In this document: in pieces, positions 1 through 5,589 of the stretch
Numbering within the stretch: position 1 is the first letter of the stretch
How the letters are laid out: every line of letters begins with the position of its first letter
IMG/VR virus record: IMGVR_UViG_3300045988_020078
Length of the DNA: 5,589 bases
Direction: 5' to 3' (one strand)
Source of the DNA: a virus
Program-made: the position numbers and the translations under genes
Notes under the pieces: generated by a model
The model's database searches: none
The model's input: the letters and a program-made list of their open reading frames with translations, nothing else
Told to the model about the DNA's origin: nothing

Positions 1-119
1 AAGATTTAAAGCTTTTTTAGAATTTTAATTGATATATTAGTAACTCGGTTTTGCTCCTTTGTTTTGAAAGCGCTTTAGCGCCTTGCCGTGCGTAGCGTAT
101 GCGGAGCTCGGCTAAATCC
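1..119. repeat. Left copy of an exact 119-nt terminal redundancy (identical to 5471-5589); overlap from linearising a circular 5470-nt genome
   Basis: Direct comparison: nt 1-119 (aagatttaaagctttttt...gagctcggctaaatcc) match 5471-5589 base for base. Offset is 5470. Confidence 0.95.
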
Positions 120-142
120 TTTCCTTTTTAGCGCTGTGCGCG

Positions 143-1147
143 TTATGCTTTCGGCTCACGCCACTTTTGTTTTAGCTTGTCTTTTTCTTTCTGAATGTTG
201 AGATAGGTTTCATAATCCACGCTTGTGTTCTGTTCGAGATTGACTAAACTTTGTATTGCGCTGCGTCTGCGTTTGGCTTTAACCTCTCTCAGCTCGTCGG
301 AATGTGCCCTAAAATAGTTTTCTGTGTCTTGGCTGGTATCTTTATCTAGAATCTTATCAAAATAGCGTGGAGGCCTTTTCTCGCGTCCTCCTGCGCATAT
401 GATGCTATCTGTTTTCAAGATTTCATCTTTATGTTCATTCAGATACTTTTCGCCGATTCCTTTTGACATGATTCGGAATTCTGGTTCTCGACCTTCCATC
501 CAGTATTTAGCCGCTTGCTCTTCGCCTATGGCTTTCTTGTTGACGTACTGTGCCACATATGCGTAGCTGCCCGGCTGCGCTGGTGAAAAGTCTATCATGC
601 CTTTGCCCCAGATTTTTTGTAACCACTCGCTTTTAAAATAGCTGTTGCCCTTTTGGTTTTTGTACCATTGTGCATCCGGTGGTTTTAGTCCGAATACTAT
701 CGCGTGGTAGTGTGGTCTCTTTGTTCTGTCTCCATATTCGGCTGCTAGGAAATACTTTATCGGCTTCTTGTACGCTTTCCGTAGCCGTTTCAGAAATAGT
801 TGCACGTCTCGCTTGCTTACTGTCTGACTTTGAATGCTTCTGTAGCCTTTGATGATTTCGCCGTATGGAATATGTTCATCGTCATACGTTAGTGTTAGAA
901 AAATTACATCATCCCATTCTTTGGCTTCTAGTTCTATTCTGGTTGCCCATTGTTCTGCTATTTGTTTACGACAATACTCACACTTACCGCATGGTAACAA
1001 TGCGAATTTTTCTTTTTTGATTCCGTCCATGATGTCCGCTTGTAGTCCTTGTTTTGATAGGTTCTCCAGACTTCCCCACAGTTTTGGTTTTTTCGTATCC
1101 ATTTGAAATACTAATGGTTTTGTACATGGCATTTTTGTTACTGGCAC
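143..1147 (-). CDS. VP4: Microviridae replication initiator (VP4, phiX174 gpA-like HUH rolling-circle endonuclease)
   Basis: The 334-aa ORF has RCR motif 1 FLTLTY (aa 83-88). The HUH motif is HYH followed by AIVFG (aa 146-148, nt 704-712, checked as CAC TAC CAC). The two-tyrosine catalytic motif YVAQYVNKK (Y197 at nt 557-559, Y201 at nt 545-547) is nearly identical to phiX174 gpA YVAKYVNKK. There is also an N-terminal CxxP...PCGKCxxCR cysteine cluster typical of microvirus VP4. The start is ambiguous. The track start at 1147 is GTG, preceded by AAGGAAG with a 3-nt spacer. The first ATG is at 1132 (MPCTKPL...), which matches the usual VP4 N-terminus better. Stop is TAA at 143-145. Confidence 0.93.
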   Translation of the reverse strand: MPVTKMPCTKPLVFQMDTKKPKLWGSLENLSKQGLQADIMDGIKKEKFALLPCGKCEYCRKQIAEQWATRIELEAKEWDDVIFLTLTYDDEHIPYGEIIKGYRSIQSQTVSKRDVQLFLKRLRKAYKKPIKYFLAAEYGDRTKRPHYHAIVFGLKPPDAQWYKNQKGNSYFKSEWLQKIWGKGMIDFSPAQPGSYAYVAQYVNKKAIGEEQAAKYWMEGREPEFRIMSKGIGEKYLNEHKDEILKTDSIICAGGREKRPPRYFDKILDKDTSQDTENYFRAHSDELREVKAKRRRSAIQSLVNLEQNTSVDYETYLNIQKEKDKLKQKWREPKA

Positions 1148-1174
1148 AAGCTTCCTTGTCTATCTTGTGCCAGT
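1140..1174 (-). promoter_or_regulatory. Perfect inverted repeat / stem-loop over the Rep translation-initiation region
   Basis: CTGGCACAAG (1141-1150) is the exact reverse complement of CTTGTGCCAG (1164-1173), and A1140-T1174 extends the stem to 11 bp. The loop is 13 nt (1151-1163). On the minus strand the loop reads ATAGACAAGGAAG, so it carries the only SD-like element upstream of rep. The stem contains the GTG at 1147-1145, and the ATG at 1132 lies 8 nt (7 nt from the A1140-T1174 extended stem) 3' of the stem. Confidence 0.55.
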
Positions 1175-1207
1175 TGACACCCCGCTTTCTTTATATATTA
1201 ACTTGTT

Positions 1208-1228
1208 GTAGTCGTAGTAGTAGTAGTG
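1208..1228. repeat. Trinucleotide microsatellite GTA GTC GTA GTA GTA GTA GTG
   Basis: Read directly at 1208-1228. It is non-coding, directly abuts the first TGTTGAAAC repeat and overlaps its first 2 nt. Confidence 0.8.
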
Positions 1229-1406
1229 TTGAAACTGTTGAAAACTCGTTTTTTTAACGTTATTACGTTTATTTATTGCCTTTTTGCTTGTTGAAAACTT
1301 TGTTGAAAACTTGTTGAATTGTTGAAAGTTCGTCATTATGACGAAAACCTTTGTGCAACTTTATGTTGAAAACCTGTTGAAAGTGTTGAAAACTCAAGTT
1401 TTCCAC
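1227..1406. repeat. Iteron-like array of TGTTGAA(A)(A)N repeats in three clusters, with one inverted copy
   Basis: Plus-strand copies: TGTTGAAAC 1227-1235; TGTTGAAAAC 1236-1245, 1289-1298, 1301-1310, 1364-1373 and 1384-1393; TGTTGAA 1312-1318; TGTTGAAAG 1320-1328 and 1375-1383. A degenerate TGTTGTA lies at 1204-1210 and a partial GAAAAC at 1343-1348. The inverted copy is GTTTTCCAC at 1398-1406. Spacing within clusters is 8-12 nt. Cluster starts are about 62 and 75 nt apart. Confidence 0.9.
1329..1345. other. Small perfect hairpin inside the repeat region (TTCGTCA-TTA-TGACGAA)
   Basis: The 7-bp arms at 1329-1335 and 1339-1345 are exact reverse complements, with a 3-nt loop. It lies between repeat clusters 2 and 3. 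Confidence 0.5.
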
Positions 1407-1434
1407 ATTCTCTATTTTCTGGATTATTGTTACT

Positions 1435-1464
1435 AAAAAAGGGGGATGTTTTGCCATCCCCCTT
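1435..1464 (-). terminator. Rho-independent terminator immediately downstream of VP2
   Basis: The minus strand reads AAGGGGGATG-GCAAAA-CATCCCCCTT, followed by the rest of a T6 run (plus-strand A6 at 1435-1440). The stem is a GC-rich 8-10 bp with a 6-nt loop, starting 7 nt after the VP2 stop (1471-1473). In the plus direction the tail (CCTTTCTTAGTTTCC) is weaker. Confidence 0.65.
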
Positions 1465-1470
1465 CCTTTC

Positions 1471-2328
1471 TTAGTTTCCTTTGTATGCGTTGAATGCGTC
1501 CATATTCGGCATAATCGGCACTCTTCGGTTGTATTTTTTGTAGTTTCCTGCTGTGTCTTTGGCTGCTTTGCCGGCCTTTTCTACTGCGTCTTGGGCTTTT
1601 TCTCCTGCTTTTGCAAGACCTGAACCTAACTTGCTGGCTGCGTAGCTGTATTGTTGCGCTTGTTTTGCGCTTGAGGTTGCCAGCTCGCTTGCTGCCTGTT
1701 CCCAGCTTTTCGCACTCTTAAGCTGCTTTGCGCTGCTGGCCTGTTTTGCCAGCTGTAAGTATTTGTCTGCTAGCTCTGCTGTGTTGTTGCCGTACTCGTA
1801 CATTGCGGATACGCTTGCAGCTTGTGCGCTCTGCTGGTTGTAATGTTGGCTTCCAATGCTTGCAGATGCTCCCGATGGTGCGCTTGTTGCGCCGTTCGTC
1901 GCTGCCAGAATAGGATTGATGCCCGCTGCAATCATGTCTTTTACAGTGTCCTGATAGGCTGTCCCGCGCATTTCCTTTTGAAATGCTCGTTCTGCTGCTG
2001 CTTCTGCGCTGTTGTATTTTTTGGCGCTTGCTTGGCTTCCAGCATTTGCGAGGTTGCTCAGCAGTCCGCTCATCATTTGCAGTGCGTTTGCGGTGTTTAC
2101 ACTGCTTTGATTCCCGAACGTTGTGATGCCTGTTGGCGTGCTGATTTGTGTTGCGCCAATCTGCTGCGGTGCTGTTAGGCTTCCGGTCGTGGTCTCGTTT
2201 CCTGTGCTGCTCTCGCTGCCTGCCCCTTGGCTGTTTTTGGCGCTGCTTTGGTTACTGCTTGTTATGATGCCTGTTAGCATGCTTAATCCTTGCATGAGGT
2301 ACGGAAAAAGTTTCAATAATGTTTCCAT
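1471..2328 (-). CDS. VP2: Microviridae minor capsid / DNA pilot protein (VP2, functional analogue of phiX174 H)
   Basis: The 285-aa ORF lies directly downstream of VP1, the conserved VP1-VP2 order. It has an N-terminal hydrophobic segment (LSMLTGIITSS) and a low-complexity Q/A/S/T-rich body. It contains the AAGINPILAA motif I recall as conserved in gokushovirus VP2, and an A/K/Q-rich helical C-terminus. ATG is at 2328-2326 and TAA at 1471-1473. No SD is visible upstream. Confidence 0.75.
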   Translation of the reverse strand: METLLKLFPYLMQGLSMLTGIITSSNQSSAKNSQGAGSESSTGNETTTGSLTAPQQIGATQISTPTGITTFGNQSSVNTANALQMMSGLLSNLANAGSQASAKKYNSAEAAAERAFQKEMRGTAYQDTVKDMIAAGINPILAATNGATSAPSGASASIGSQHYNQQSAQAASVSAMYEYGNNTAELADKYLQLAKQASSAKQLKSAKSWEQAASELATSSAKQAQQYSYAASKLGSGLAKAGEKAQDAVEKAGKAAKDTAGNYKKYNRRVPIMPNMDAFNAYKGN

Positions 2329-2330
2329 TC

Positions 2331-2356
2331 AAAAATAGCCCCGCTTTTGCGGGGCT
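2331..2356 (-). terminator. Intrinsic terminator / attenuator hairpin between VP1 and VP2
   Basis: The minus strand reads AGCCCCGC-AAAA-GCGGGGCT followed by ATTTTTG. This is a perfect 8-bp stem (2337-2344 with 2349-2356), a tetraloop and a T5 tail (2331-2335). The tail ends 2 nt before the VP2 ATG. Confidence 0.55.
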
Positions 2357-2366
2357 TCCTCTTTTC

Positions 2367-4046
2367 TTAGATTCTTTCGATGCCGGGAATGCTGTAGATT
2401 GGCATTTCGCGATACCAGTCTTCAGTGAAGTAGAAGTCACACAAGAACTGGTGGCTTACGTTGCTTGTCACAGCAATTGTTCGGTCGATGTTCTGTGTTC
2501 CTTCCTGGATCCATTCCGCTGAGAGACGCGGCAGATTTTTATAGTAGTCTGCATAGTGCCATGCGTCCAAACTGGTCTGATAGTTCGACCGCATTTCTCC
2601 GGTTACGTAAGAAGGTTTGTATCGGTAATCCGCCCATGCCTCCTGATAGCCGAAGATTTCGTTATCTTCGGTTGTGCCCTGTGCATAGATTTCACGGTTA
2701 TATACCGGCTGTTCGCCCAGTGCTGCCAGTCGCGGGTCGTAGTAGGTGAATCGCCCGCCACGTGTCCACTTGGTTGCAAGTCCCTGTTGGTAGCTGTGTT
2801 CTACTCGTACTACTGCCAGACCGATGATGTAGCCGTATTCGGTCGCTGCATAGTCCACCATCTGCTTACTGCACGTGGTTAGGCTGTATGCTGCCGTATT
2901 GCCCAGTGCCTGACCGGTTGTGGTGTCCGTCTGGCTCGTCTGGACAACCTGATTGACATTGATTGCGATGCGCTGCCCGCCGATGTACTCAGGAATCTGT
3001 AGACGGCTGTCCGGACTTGTTACGCCCCATGTACCAGACAGGAATTCACGGTATCGCGTGCCGTTTCGTGCATCTGCTTCGAAGATGTGCTGCAGTGTGA
3101 TGCTCATGCGCAAGTCTGCAATGCTGATTGCACTTACTCCGCTGAGGTCTGCCATCATCCAGCCGCCATCACCTACGCTGCCAGTAGCGCCGTATGTTCC
3201 GCTAAATTCCAATTGCGCTTTTTCGCCGGGTTTGTTGTACTCCTTTTGGTATGTAATCGTGCCGGCTTTGTTGCTTGTCTGTGTTGCTCCAACTGTCATT
3301 GTTATTGAAGTTGCAGTGTCTAAGTATTCTCCGTTTGATTGCCCCAGTCTGATTGGTGCATTGCCGGTCAGGCTGATTTCCATAGGGTCAGATTTCAACG
3401 GGTATGGCAAACAGGATGTGAAGTAGTCGTGGAACTTTCCCGCTTTGGCTGGTTTTCTCGCATAGATGGCTGCTTCGTTGGTGCTCGTGGTATTTTTCGG
3501 TTCATTTACGCTTTCTGTTTTTACCGTTTCGGGATTTGTTACGTTTTCGGCATCATCTGTTTTTTTATAGCCCAGCATCAATGGTGCTTCAAGGTTCTCG
3601 TCTCGAAACCATTCGTTGTAAATCATGGCGTATGCACGCGCCGGCAGCGCGTTTACCTTGATTTCGTTTTTGATTCCGGTCGGCAGTCCGAAATAGTCGC
3701 CGATGCTGCCATTGGCAAGACCACTTATTCCGCCGATTTTGCATGTGGGTGTGCTGTATTCGGTCTTTTCTGCCCAGTAGTTCGTATCGTTCTCACCGAA
3801 CATATTTTCCCAGTGTTCCCACAGCAGACGGCATGGTACAAAGAAGAAATAGGTGTCCATGTAGCAGTTATCCATGATAGGATAGATGGGAGTGCTCATG
3901 CGGATAAGTCCGTTCAGGCGCACTTGTGCAGTATCGCCCGGTAGTACTTCGTCACAGTAGATTGGCACTAGCTCGCCTTCGTTGATGGTCGTTAACAGCT
4001 GGTGGCTTCGGTCAAATTTGCTTCGCGGTCGTTCCATTCGCGGCAC
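2367..4046 (-). CDS. VP1: Microviridae major capsid protein (VP1, phiX174 F-like)
   Basis: This is the largest ORF (559 aa). Its N-terminus, RSKFDRSHQLLTTINEGELVPIYCDEVLPGDT, closely matches the conserved gokushovirus VP1 N-terminal block (RSxFDxSHxxKTTxxxGxLIPIxxDEVLPGDT). Size and position are typical. The codon at 4046 is GTG, and the first in-frame ATG is at 4037 (MERPRSKF...). Neither has a clear SD. Stop is TAA at 2367-2369. Confidence 0.94.
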   Translation of the reverse strand: MPRMERPRSKFDRSHQLLTTINEGELVPIYCDEVLPGDTAQVRLNGLIRMSTPIYPIMDNCYMDTYFFFVPCRLLWEHWENMFGENDTNYWAEKTEYSTPTCKIGGISGLANGSIGDYFGLPTGIKNEIKVNALPARAYAMIYNEWFRDENLEAPLMLGYKKTDDAENVTNPETVKTESVNEPKNTTSTNEAAIYARKPAKAGKFHDYFTSCLPYPLKSDPMEISLTGNAPIRLGQSNGEYLDTATSITMTVGATQTSNKAGTITYQKEYNKPGEKAQLEFSGTYGATGSVGDGGWMMADLSGVSAISIADLRMSITLQHIFEADARNGTRYREFLSGTWGVTSPDSRLQIPEYIGGQRIAINVNQVVQTSQTDTTTGQALGNTAAYSLTTCSKQMVDYAATEYGYIIGLAVVRVEHSYQQGLATKWTRGGRFTYYDPRLAALGEQPVYNREIYAQGTTEDNEIFGYQEAWADYRYKPSYVTGEMRSNYQTSLDAWHYADYYKNLPRLSAEWIQEGTQNIDRTIAVTSNVSHQFLCDFYFTEDWYREMPIYSIPGIERI

Positions 4047-4062
4047 TTGCGCGAAATGGTTT

Positions 4063-4506
4063 TCACTGTTTCTGTTCGTTTTCCTTTACCTCCTCCTTCT
4101 TTTCTTTCTCTTCTTCTGTCGGCTTCTCTGTCGGCTTCGGCTGTTCGGTCTGCTGCATCTGCTGCAGCTGTTCCAGCGTTTTGGCTGCAGTTTCGGCTTT
4201 TTCGTGCATCGTCACGATATCTTTCGGCAGATTTTCGAGGTCGGTTCCTTCGGTGTATACCACGCTTTTGGCTTTGATACTGGTATCTCCAGCTTCCAGT
4301 CTTGCGATTGCGCTTGCAAGGTCGTAGCCCTCGCCCGCTCGCTGGATTTTTTCGTATGTGTTCTCATCTGGCTGCTGTATGTAGTCGGTAGTGCCGTTTG
4401 GTCGTTTGACTGCTTTCCACGTTGGCGCGGTCTTGCTGCCCGGATTGTTCTTCACTCTCTCGGTTGGCATTCCGTAGTATCTCACCATTGCATCAGGACT
4501 TAGCAT
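4063..4506 (-). CDS. Putative internal scaffolding protein (VP3-like)
   Basis: The 147-aa ORF lies immediately upstream of VP1 with a 16-nt gap, the VP3 position in gokushovirus-type genomes. It has a strong SD, GAAGGAGA, 6 nt before the ATG at 4506. The C-terminus is an acidic, low-complexity E/K-rich tail. The call rests on size and synteny. I do not recognise a strong family motif. Confidence 0.55.
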   Translation of the reverse strand: MLSPDAMVRYYGMPTERVKNNPGSKTAPTWKAVKRPNGTTDYIQQPDENTYEKIQRAGEGYDLASAIARLEAGDTSIKAKSVVYTEGTDLENLPKDIVTMHEKAETAAKTLEQLQQMQQTEQPKPTEKPTEEEKEKKEEVKENEQKQ

Positions 4507-4747
4507 TGGTCGTCTCCTTCAGGTCGATGAGCCGTGCGATGTGTTCAGGCTCCGCCTCGCTCATGTTGCCGGTTTCGGTGTCGAATTCGCCTAGCTCTAC
4601 GAGCGAAATATCTTCGATTTCGCTCGGTTTGCTTTCGTTGGCCTTCCATCGTGCCGTCCGGACTGCCTGTGCCCTGTTGTTCTGCAGGAACGGCTGAGAG
4701 TAGCCGTTGGTCAGTGAATCGTGGAATGAGTAGAATTTCAGCTTCAT
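4493..4747 (-). CDS. VP5/ORF5-like small non-structural protein (proposed phiX174 gpC analogue in gokushoviruses)
   Basis: The 84-aa ORF starts MKLKFYSFHDSLTNGYSQPFLQNNRAQAVRTA. This fits the MKxxxxxxxDxxxxxYxxPF...A.R pattern I recall for gokushovirus VP5. The SD AAGGAG lies 7 nt before the ATG at 4747. Its end overlaps the VP3-like start by 14 nt, suggesting translational coupling. Confidence 0.55.
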   Translation of the reverse strand: MKLKFYSFHDSLTNGYSQPFLQNNRAQAVRTARWKANESKPSEIEDISLVELGEFDTETGNMSEAEPEHIARLIDLKETTNAKS

Positions 4748-4759
4748 GTTTTTTCTCCT

Positions 4760-4876
4760 TTACTCTTTGTCTTTGCTTGCATCCTTCAGTGCGTGGTAGA
4801 TTTCGTCGAGCTTTTCAAGGATGTCCATCATCAGCGCGATTGCTTCCTTGACGTCCTTGACCTTAATCAGTGCCAT
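4760..4876 (-). CDS. Hypothetical 38-aa helical, slightly acidic protein (below the ORF-track cutoff)
   Basis: Hand translation gives MALIKVKDVKEAIALMMDILEKLDEIYHALKDASKDKE, ending in TAA at 4760-4762. The SD AGAGGTGA (plus-strand tcacctct, 4881-4888) has GAGG 7 nt before the ATG at 4876. The ORF fills an otherwise empty gap in a tightly packed operon. There is no TM segment and no recognisable family. Confidence 0.4.
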   Translation of the reverse strand: MALIKVKDVKEAIALMMDILEKLDEIYHALKDASKDKE

Positions 4877-4907
4877 TAAGTCACCTCTTTTCTTTGTTTT
4901 GTATCGT

Positions 4908-5024
4908 TTACAGCCGGATACCGCCCCGCGATACCTTCGGTCGTACGTTGATGTTTTTTACTCGCTTGGCAGTCTGAGTAAAGCGTTTCTGGTCGCCCTG
5001 ACCTGCACCGCTTCTGTGTGCCAT
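4908..5024 (-). CDS. Small highly basic DNA-binding/packaging protein (phiX174 J / chlamydiaphage ORF8 analogue; below the ORF-track cutoff)
   Basis: Hand translation gives MAHRSGAGQGDQKRFTQTAKRVKNINVRPKVSRGGIRL, ending in TAA at 4908-4910. It has 10 K/R against 1 acidic residue. The C-terminal RGGIRL resembles the endings I recall for gokushovirus DNA-binding proteins. The SD AAGGGGG lies 7 nt before the ATG at 5024. That ATG is 2 nt after the peptidase stop. Confidence 0.65.
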   Translation of the reverse strand: MAHRSGAGQGDQKRFTQTAKRVKNINVRPKVSRGGIRL

Positions 5025-5026
5025 TT

Positions 5027-5407
5027 TTACACCCCCTTTCTGTATTTGTTTTCGCGTATGTCAATGTGTACAAAATTAGTATATCGGATAACTCCGCCTT
5101 TGTCAAGTATGCTATCTGCATATTCTGCAACTTCTTTTGAACTTTTTCCCTTTACTACGATATCAGCTGCCATCCCTTTGCAATGGTAAGATGCTTTTGC
5201 TCCGCCCACGTTTTTGTTGTGTTTTACGGTTCTAAAACCGCTGTTAATGGTTACTGGCAGATTGAAGTGGTTTCGGATTTTTTCTAATGCTTCTATCAGT
5301 TGACTGTCGATGAGAATGTTGTCTGTTCCGTCTTTACATGCAAACTCGTTTGCTTTAAAGTGTTCGGATACTCTTACATTGTCCTCTTTGCTGTATGCTA
5401 ATAACAT
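5027..5407 (-). CDS. Zinc D,D-/L,D-peptidase of the LAS fold, M15 family (Peptidase_M15_3 / M15A-like); putative peptidoglycan hydrolase
   Basis: It carries the signature SYHCKGMAAD, matching SxHxxGxAxD (nt 5162-5191; H codon checked at 5183-5185), plus a downstream FVHID histidine (nt 5066-5068). The N-terminal SEHFKANEFACKDG block is typical of M15_3 proteins. I place the start at ATG 5407-5405 (MLLAYSKE..., 126 aa), because AAGGAG (5416-5421) lies 8 nt upstream. The track start at 5461 has no SD and sits inside the predicted -10 element. Stop is TAA at 5027-5029. Confidence 0.88.
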   Translation of the reverse strand: MLLAYSKEDNVRVSEHFKANEFACKDGTDNILIDSQLIEALEKIRNHFNLPVTINSGFRTVKHNKNVGGAKASYHCKGMAADIVVKGKSSKEVAEYADSILDKGGVIRYTNFVHIDIRENKYRKGV

Positions 5408-5451
5408 GGTATTTACTCCTTTTCTGTTAAATACATTGCTACTTTTATTAC

Positions 5452-5480
5452 ATTCTATCATATTTTTTGGAAGATTTAAA
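5452..5480 (-). promoter_or_regulatory. Candidate sigma70-type promoter for the peptidase-to-capsid operon
   Basis: The minus strand reads TTTAAA (5480-5475, also 10-5), a 17-nt spacer, then TG-A-TAGAAT (the -10 at 5457-5452, with an extended -10 TG). It lies in the AT-rich segment between the rep stop and the peptidase, about 45 nt upstream of ATG 5407. Called by eye only. Confidence 0.35.
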
Positions 5481-5589
5481 GCTTTTTTAGAATTTTAATT
5501 GATATATTAGTAACTCGGTTTTGCTCCTTTGTTTTGAAAGCGCTTTAGCGCCTTGCCGTGCGTAGCGTATGCGGAGCTCGGCTAAATCC
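5471..5589. repeat. Right copy of the 119-nt terminal redundancy (circular-genome overlap)
   Basis: Identical to nt 1-119. The window ends inside the repeat. Confidence 0.95.

Follow-up and report, generated by a model that had tools for sequence, protein, structure and literature searches.

The window analysed here is the whole of IMG/VR virus record IMGVR_UViG_3300045988_020078 (5,589 nucleotides, nt), a complete circular gokushovirus genome whose minus strand encodes, at 5027-5407, a predicted single-domain Peptidase_M15_3/LAS zinc peptidase with intact metal ligands. We consider it probable that this protein is a murein-cutting lysis enzyme of tailed-phage origin, made late in infection and now carried on a mobile cassette. 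Gokushoviruses are among the most abundant phages of the human gut, and M15 peptidases have been the standing candidate for their exit from the host since 2012. The occurrence of these enzymes in gut gokushoviruses is thus not new, and they are annotated in GenBank relatives of the window, which adds no new kind of gene. The interest lies instead in a mechanism that would proceed without a holin, and in a gene of 38 amino acids (aa), here called s38, that is linked to the peptidase gene.

The 126-aa product matches Pfam Peptidase_M15_3 (PF08291; MEROPS M15, clan MD) over positions 2-108 of the 108-position profile (E 3.9e-26; 91.7 bits, far above the 23.2-bit cut-off) and PHROG 894, 'endolysin' (E 6.6e-39). 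It carries the motif S73-x-H75-x-x-G78-x-A80-x-D82 and a downstream histidine, H114, within FVHID. Across 32 aligned homologues, H75, D82, H114, D116 and R59 never vary; H75, D82 and H114 are the predicted zinc ligands, joined by R59 and D116. The sole solved structure found by sequence was PDB 1LBU (E 4.5e-6), aligned across the NSGFR…SYHCKGMAAD segment. An AlphaFold2 model (predicted local distance difference test 85, predicted template modelling score 0.80) shows the LAS / Hedgehog-N fold. A Foldseek search with this model ranked 1LBU first (E 6e-5), followed by Hedgehog-N, LdcB/VanY, ChiX and the L-Ala-D-Glu endolysins of RB49 and ECD7, with moderate template modelling (TM) scores of at most 0.49. 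The initial annotation, made from the letters alone, had recognized an M15/LAS zinc peptidase by its SxHxxGxAxD motif and downstream His, and had proposed profile searches and structure prediction as checks; both agree with it. The MepK equivalog profile (NCBIfam NF053624) scored 50.3 bits against a cut-off of 185.

In the protein collection, homologues form 775 clusters; those most similar to the window protein come from contigs of about 5.6 kb, and the nearest of all are unannotated metagenomic proteins of 91-93% identity. The gene is under purifying selection, with a ratio of nonsynonymous to synonymous substitution rates (dN/dS) of 0.06-0.10 against three relatives (L003, L004 and L005). 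Its open reading frame (ORF) spans 5027-5461. We place the start codon at the internal ATG at 5407 because AAGGAG, a Shine-Dalgarno (SD) sequence, lies 8 nt upstream, and the extension to 5461 is not needed; the same ATG and N-terminus, MLLAYSKEDN, occur in homologues 91-93% identical to the window protein (P0001, P0003). The stop codon (TAA, 5029-5027) lies 2 nt ahead of the J-like ATG at 5024, just as first described. The late block runs from the peptidase through J, s38, VP5, VP3 and VP1 to a terminator-like hairpin at 2337-2356, which would close a transcript reaching from the peptidase to VP1. Separately, a near-perfect sigma-70 consensus (TTGACA-17-TATACT, 11/12) lies at 5078-5106 on the minus strand, in the 3' part of the peptidase gene. 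It falls on conserved codons (ILDKGG…YT), the J-like ATG following 54 nt downstream, and as a consensus match it could give J, s38 and the capsid genes transcription separate from that of the peptidase.

Transmembrane segments were sought as a mean Kyte-Doolittle hydrophobicity over 19 residues (KD19) of at least 1.6, in ORFs of at least 20-30 aa that begin with ATG, GTG or TTG. Neither a signal nor a hydrophobic N-terminal (SAR, signal-anchor-release) segment was found in the peptidase, whose N-terminus reads MLLAYSKEDNVRVSEHF and whose protein-wide KD19 maximum is 0.57. In homologues with N-terminal extensions, the extensions are hydrophilic and basic. No minus-strand ORF of at least 20 aa in the window, embedded and wrap-around ones included, reaches KD19 1.6, and the coding-strand maximum falls in the VP2 N-terminus (1.36). 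The window therefore has the muralytic enzyme gene of a canonical holin-endolysin cassette and lacks its transmembrane holin. It also has no counterpart of phiX174 E, as a small transmembrane ORF is missing from every minus-strand frame, overprinted ones included. These results uphold the earlier statements that the peptidase has no signal or transmembrane segment and that the coding strand holds no membrane-protein ORF, and the puzzle of export raised on that basis is a real one.

Related loci for comparison were fetched from IMG/VR. A coding-strand ORF of at least 30 aa with KD19 of at least 1.6 occurs in only 13 of 122 microviral loci, mostly overprinted in VP1, and the absence of a holin is therefore group-wide rather than peculiar to the window genome. 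Non-overlapping transmembrane ORFs at KD19 of at least 1.8 were found in 3 of 165 peptidase-bearing microviral genomes, and a non-overlapping transmembrane ORF in 1 of the 159 genomes that carry s38. By contrast, at least 28 of 36 non-microviral loci have a same-strand transmembrane ORF (at least 50 aa) within 800 nt of the peptidase homologue, the exceptions lying mostly at contig ends. The gene order in Faecalibacterium phage FP_oengus, whose endolysin is 48% identical to the window peptidase, is endolysin, hypothetical protein, holin. Thus one enzyme family is accompanied by holins in tailed phages and almost never in about 160 microviral genomes.

Several hydrophobic candidates were set aside. 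The VP2 N-terminus was rejected as a peptidase-specific membrane factor, because VP2 N-termini are generally Gly/Ala-rich and moderately hydrophobic (median KD19 1.27 across 153 genomes). Two plus-strand hydrophobic ORFs, at 3982-4503 and 4821-5189, are artefacts that mirror Lys/Glu-rich coding sequence in antisense, and the one lying opposite s38, J and the peptidase does not stay open in the close relatives L001, L085 and L086 (43-80 codons). Two further hydrophobic ORFs of some relatives, one overprinted in VP1 (…LLSVLCVYAIITAISR…) and one overlapping the 3' end of Rep (…LSSKVLGIIILIA…), are absent from the window and from most genomes. The Rep-overlapping ORF, of 50-59 aa with a basic N-terminus and the hydrophobic stretch LSSKVLGIIILIA, recurs in L009, L010, L011, L012, L017, L018 and L021, and in L018 (ORF 2104-2283) the stretch is widened to a clear transmembrane segment.

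The initial annotation overlooked s38, which is a genuine, strongly constrained gene: an SD stands ahead of the ORF, and dN/dS is 0.08 in its own frame but 1.2 and 2.5 in the other two. Its product, MALIKVKDVKEAIALMMDILEKLDEIYHALKDASKDKE, has 38 aa and is acidic (pI 5.2), non-hydrophobic and heptad-patterned, with invariant residues D24, I26, Y27 and H28 forming a D-x-I-Y-H core within the heptad pattern (…ILEKLDEIYHAL…); homologues have 28-42 aa. A profile search returned 1,697 clusters; the best 120 of these are short proteins without a Pfam domain, named only 'hypothetical protein' and encoded mostly on microvirus-sized contigs. When 1.84 billion representatives were searched exhaustively with a hidden Markov model (HMM), 36 short s38 proteins, all stand-alone, came up (representatives at 50% identity) and no fusions, and a PDB profile search gave only insignificant coiled-coil matches with a weak GCN4-type resemblance. 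The family appears not to have been described before.

Linkage between s38 and the peptidase is close. All 74 loci fetched with s38 carry the peptidase, an apparent exception (L154) being a contig that begins inside the peptidase gene. Conversely, of 165 microviral genomes with the peptidase, sampled from a few related gut lineages without peptidase-free close relatives as a control, 159 have s38 no more than about 500 nt away from it. Three gene orders occur. In 103 genomes s38 directly follows the peptidase at a distance of up to 60 nt, frequently 0-4 nt; in 45 a J-like gene stands between them, as in the window; in 7 more s38 lies within 520 nt downstream with no J-like ORF detected between; and in 4 s38 precedes the peptidase. 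The remaining 6 gave no s38 HMM match, two of them having a truncated s38. A comparison of the window lineage with the main lineage puts s38 at 60-84% identity and the peptidase at 62-69%, far above the capsid (about 40%), Rep (about 36%) and VP2 (about 30%). This linkage fits a functional partner of the peptidase, although it is not proof of one.

Some peptidase-bearing genomes without s38 encode small transmembrane peptides. Dulem viruses 189 and 195 have a clear one after VP2 (L167 2607-2783; L168 2593-2700), and the IMG/VR genome L076 has a transmembrane ORF, 3982-4128, overprinted in VP3. These are possible holins, in too few lineages to generalize. We treat a complementary distribution of s38 and transmembrane ORFs as a lead only, since it comes from two to three lineages and two 's38-negative' genomes have a truncated s38. 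The main lineage has, between s38 and the J-like gene, a conserved ORF of some 75 aa (M..K.WN.RDQTE…IELEL..R) that the window lacks.

The peptidase is an exchangeable one-gene cassette among gokushovirus lineages. KX513876 (L001) matches the window at 85-90% nt identity throughout except at 5072-5441, which corresponds to the peptidase ORF and its ribosome-binding site, and its peptidase is only 50% identical in aa. The locus L154 presents the reverse: its capsid is 40% identical to that of the window and its core genes have no nucleotide similarity, and it shares 99.3% nt identity over a 144-nt upstream non-coding element and 98.4% over the last 128 nt of the peptidase gene. The non-coding element was found in 67 fetched loci at a median identity of 88% (88-99% range), though the coding genes there do not align. 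It shows no fold signal (z 0.74) and no Rfam match, and may be an origin, a promoter or a recombination anchor. The conserved flanks, with the element upstream and the 3' end of the peptidase, s38 or J downstream, are a plausible substrate for homologous allele exchange. In recent exchanges s38 did not accompany the peptidase. The earlier view that the gene is built into the operon rather than a stray insertion holds as far as purifying selection and fixed position go, and has to be qualified by the exchangeability of the cassette. The very end of L002 (ENA ERZ27260629 k99_7785, 42,252 nt) also carries, at 9882-10416, a peptidase of 75% identity with the first part of an s38 homologue directly after it. 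This 42-kb contig also holds a tyrosine integrase, a Tn916-Xis-like gene, a dUTPase and a radical-SAM gene, and is either a chimeric assembly or a tailed temperate phage with a microviral-type cassette.

In the lysis explanation that we favour, an active single-domain LAS/M15 peptidase would cut the stem peptides or cross-links of peptidoglycan, and would serve as the lysis enzyme in place of a phiX174 E-type inhibitor. Gut gokushoviruses would have gained the gene from the lysis modules of tailed phages, and it would now move between gokushovirus lineages as a one-gene cassette; the tailed-phage homologues among GenBank matches are annotated as endolysins, including those of many Vibrio and enterobacterial phages. 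From its position at the head of the late block, the enzyme would be produced at the same time as the capsid proteins. Its activity on murein, its late timing and its role in release are all properties that we infer. For passage of the signal-less 14.5-kDa protein across the membrane, we tentatively favour a non-canonical helper encoded by the phage over a classical holin, the candidates being s38 first and the VP2 N-terminus second.

Several points weigh against this explanation. We know of no endolysin that causes timely lysis without a holin, signal or SAR segment. As for the helper, s38 is acidic, non-hydrophobic and without a match of known function, having none in Pfam, PHROGs, NCBIfam or PADLOC. 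It may also be an ordinary backbone or assembly gene, adjacent to the peptidase through shared ancestry, because the peptidase has moved without it in recent exchanges. Shorter or unusual membrane peptides would escape the KD19 scan of ORFs. The peptidase was first described as the first gene after the main promoter: it does head a tightly packed late block, but the promoter is no more than consensus-like, since promoter matches in the window (4 sites) do not exceed those in shuffled sequence (5.8 expected). In the literature searched, no paper puts a gokushovirus M15 peptidase to the test or takes up the missing holin.

A minor possibility is that lysis proceeds with no membrane-spanning holin, either because s38 is a non-membrane partner that exports or activates the endolysin, or because the peptidase acts inside the cell on wall precursors. 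If true, either version would be a lysis strategy undescribed for any phage group, and a holin-free route would widen the known repertoire of phage lysis, possibly with a minimal module of two genes.

The first version, in which s38 would associate with the peptidase to deliver, release or activate it and no classical holin pore would form, we regard as unlikely taken alone. It would be comparable to the case of mycobacteriophage Ms6, where the small non-membrane chaperone Gp1 assists export of LysA. It draws on the strong constraint on s38, on the confinement of s38 to small stand-alone proteins (mostly on microvirus-sized contigs in the best 120 of the 1,697 clusters), on the presence of the peptidase in every s38-bearing locus, on the tight spacing of the two genes in three orders and on their shared conservation between lineages whose capsids have diverged. 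Transmembrane proteins hold the flanking position in tailed phages, and the few peptidase-bearing microviruses without s38 (the Dulem viruses and L076) have a small transmembrane ORF instead. Against this, the linkage is perhaps phylogenetic, given the narrow sample of gut lineages and the lack of peptidase-free close relatives, and recent exchanges left s38 behind. The s38 family offers neither fusions nor homology that would point to a partnership, and its complementarity with transmembrane ORFs comes from the handful of lineages noted above, two of the six 's38-negative' genomes having a truncated gene.

The second version is an inside-out 'protein antibiotic', to which we give a rather low likelihood. 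Here the peptidase would stay in the cytoplasm and hydrolyse D-Ala-D-Ala, UDP-MurNAc-pentapeptide or lipid II of the inner leaflet; wall synthesis would be starved and growing cells would lyse with no need of a holin, by the logic of phiX174 E but enzymatically. VanX and VanXY are soluble M15 enzymes that act on peptidoglycan precursors, and lysis by blocked murein synthesis is typical of small phages, as with phiX174 E, Q-beta A2 and phage M LysM, a habit that this version suits. It would account for why more than 150 genomes show neither holin nor signal. By sequence as well as by fold, the one solved structure with a significant match is the D-Ala-D-Ala carboxypeptidase 1LBU, and cytoplasmic VanXYc and VanY are among the weaker fold matches. 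However, tailed phages have homologues of 45-55% identity, with shared catalytic residues, inside their holin cassettes, a setting that implies the mature wall as target. A VanX-type signature is missing and the MepK equivalog score was not reached; this clade gives no information on specificity, and no computed result separates the substrates.

The initial annotation had held that the peptidase could equally act at entry, for which we found no support. A packaged or capsid-associated enzyme that opens the wall locally, especially that of a thick-walled Firmicute host, seems improbable to us. In characterized microviruses the DNA is delivered through a pilot-protein tube without a murein hydrolase. 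The peptidase shows neither a virion-targeting feature nor homology to structural proteins, its relatives serve in release as endolysins adjoining holins, and the free exchange of alleles between capsid lineages makes a tight structural fit unlikely. An entry role would suit the basic charge of the peptidase (pI 9.1), which resembles that of the packaged J protein, the traces of Ebor Gp7 detected in virions (PMC11980548), and the Gram-positive hosts about which Roux et al. speculated in 2012 (PMC3394797); the cultured phages with the closest homologues infect Faecalibacterium. That the gene is a decaying remnant of horizontal transfer without a role is very hard to credit: it is accessory and missing from many gokushoviruses (PMC7062461), but its low dN/dS, invariant catalytic residues and strong SD, and its retention by over 160 genomes of some 5.5 kb, with little room for genes to spare, speak for function.

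Earlier work anticipates much of this picture. Roux et al. (2012; PMC3394797) described M15_3 peptidases in 11 human-associated Microviridae, 5 of them gokushoviruses, noted that the nearest homologues adjoin holins in (pro)phages and have an affinity to Faecalibacterium, inferred repeated horizontal gene transfer and proposed an endolysin role; the initial annotation was right that such enzymes had been noted in some metagenomic Microviridae. Kirchberger et al. (2022; PMC9239249) treat the peptidases as lysis-associated accessory genes and report exchange of the peptidase region between distant microviruses. Gokushoviruses lack a phiX174 E-type lysis gene, in line with the initial annotation, and many also lack the peptidase (Kirchberger & Ochman 2020; PMC7062461). 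M15 peptidases have been reported in marine Occultatumvirinae as well, and KX513876 carries the GenBank annotation 'peptidase M15'.

The closest known counterparts are the M15_3 peptidases of gut Gokushovirinae and Alpavirinae (PMC3394797; KX513876, KX513868, KT264792), which share the Pfam family, virus group, habitat and place between Rep and the small late genes. The window peptidase is a different allele, with 50% aa identity to that of KX513876 and 73% to that of KT264792; a further difference is the J-like gene that lies between peptidase and s38 in the window. Single-domain M15 endolysins of tailed phages (FP_oengus; SP6-like Klebsiella and Salmonella phages) are 45-48% identical over their full length, similar in size and alike in catalytic residues, but they adjoin holins or transmembrane proteins, whereas the microviral gene has no such neighbour. 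In the zinc D-Ala-D-Ala carboxypeptidase of Streptomyces albus G (1LBU; MEROPS M15A), positions 138, 154 and 161 align with R59, H75 and D82, at 27% identity over 88 columns and a TM score of 0.48, a likeness from which specificity is not transferable. Unlike the window peptidase, 1LBU is a secreted bacterial enzyme with an extra N-terminal wall-binding domain. The L,D-endopeptidase MepK of E. coli (Peptidase_M15_2/DUF882) shows a weak profile likeness (Pfam M15_2 E 3e-8, NCBIfam E 2.5e-13); it is a Tat-exported periplasmic enzyme, whereas the window peptidase has no signal. phiX174 E meets the same need, release from a walled cell on minimal coding capacity, but is an overprinted transmembrane protein that inhibits MraY, whereas the window candidate is a soluble predicted hydrolase in a genome without a transmembrane ORF. 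Gp7 of the Rhodobacter microvirus Ebor, the first murein hydrolase of a single-stranded DNA phage shown to be active in vitro (2025; PMC11980548), is likewise accessory, but belongs to another subfamily and is not described as M15. Ebor also encodes a predicted 45-aa membrane protein, Gp1 (PMC11980548), and so may have a holin-like partner.

The genome itself is of the Gokushovirinae type, by which we mean a circular genome of about 4.5-6 kb with a Phage_F capsid, VP2, VP4, VP3 and VP5 on one strand. Because positions 1-119 recur exactly at 5471-5589, the window is a complete circle of 5,470 nt whose ends overlap by 119 nt in the assembly. Every substantial ORF lies on the minus strand, and Pfam and PHROGs identify a gokushovirus-type set there: the VP1 capsid (Phage_F, E 1e-148), ORF5 (VP5), Chlamy_scaf (VP3 scaffold), Rep (VP4) and the VP2 pilot protein. 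Homologues of the J-like ORF are annotated 'DNA binding protein' in Dulem viruses. The nearest GenBank records, both human-gut Gokushovirinae, are KX513876 and MT121961, with 86-87% nt identity across 87-88% of the genome; for KX513876 the figures are 87% across 87%.

Table. Features of the window (positions 1-5,589), with matching or related stretches in other loci where named
Feature	Position	Strand	Remarks
Exact direct repeat, terminal	1-119 = 5471-5589		100% identity; assembly overlap
Conserved non-coding element	~1-144 (also about 20-160)	-	between Rep stop (143) and peptidase
Rep/VP4 replication initiator	143-1147	-	Pfam, PHROGs; upstream of non-coding element and peptidase
VP2 DNA pilot protein	1471-2328	-	PHROGs; N-terminus LLKLFPYLMQGLSMLTGII, KD19 1.36
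Terminator-like GC-rich hairpin and T-run, between VP1 and VP2	2337-2356	-	8 bp stem, 7 GC pairs; tail ATTTTTGAAT
VP1 capsid	2367-4046	-	Phage_F; Pfam/PHROGs
VP3-like scaffold	4063-4506	-	Chlamy_scaf; Pfam/PHROGs
VP5/ORF5	4493-4747	-	Pfam/PHROGs
s38 ORF, 38 aa	4760-4876	-	in-frame dN/dS 0.08; SD upstream
J/VP8-like basic DNA-binding protein, 38 aa, pI 12.0	4908-5024	-	PHROG 10695, E 2.9e-6
Predicted M15 peptidase gene, 126 aa, pI 9.1	5027-5407	-	Peptidase_M15_3 / LAS fold
Shine-Dalgarno AAGGAG	5416-5421	-	8 nt upstream of ATG 5407
Promoter-like site TTTAAA-17-TAGAAT, TG-extended	5452-5480	-	consensus match; upstream of peptidase
L154 stretches matching the window cassette	1-127 and 5222-5365		98-99% nt
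ORF of ~75 aa, examples	L003 1071-1295; L197 893-1120; L046 2921-3148; L010 789-1031		

A scan of GTDB genomes with the peptidase profile gave a single microvirus-sized contig, binned with a Bacteroides metagenome-assembled genome, together with distant matches and no prophage. The strong SDs of the AAGGAG type, read from the sequence, argue weakly against a Bacteroidota host. The intergenic region between VP2 and Rep (1148-1470) contains an iteron-like cluster, with five perfect copies of TGTTGAAAAC inside 160 nt (1236-1393); when one mismatch is tolerated, the window total is 7, against an expectation of 0.43. In L154 the region homologous to this cluster sits downstream, not upstream, of Rep.

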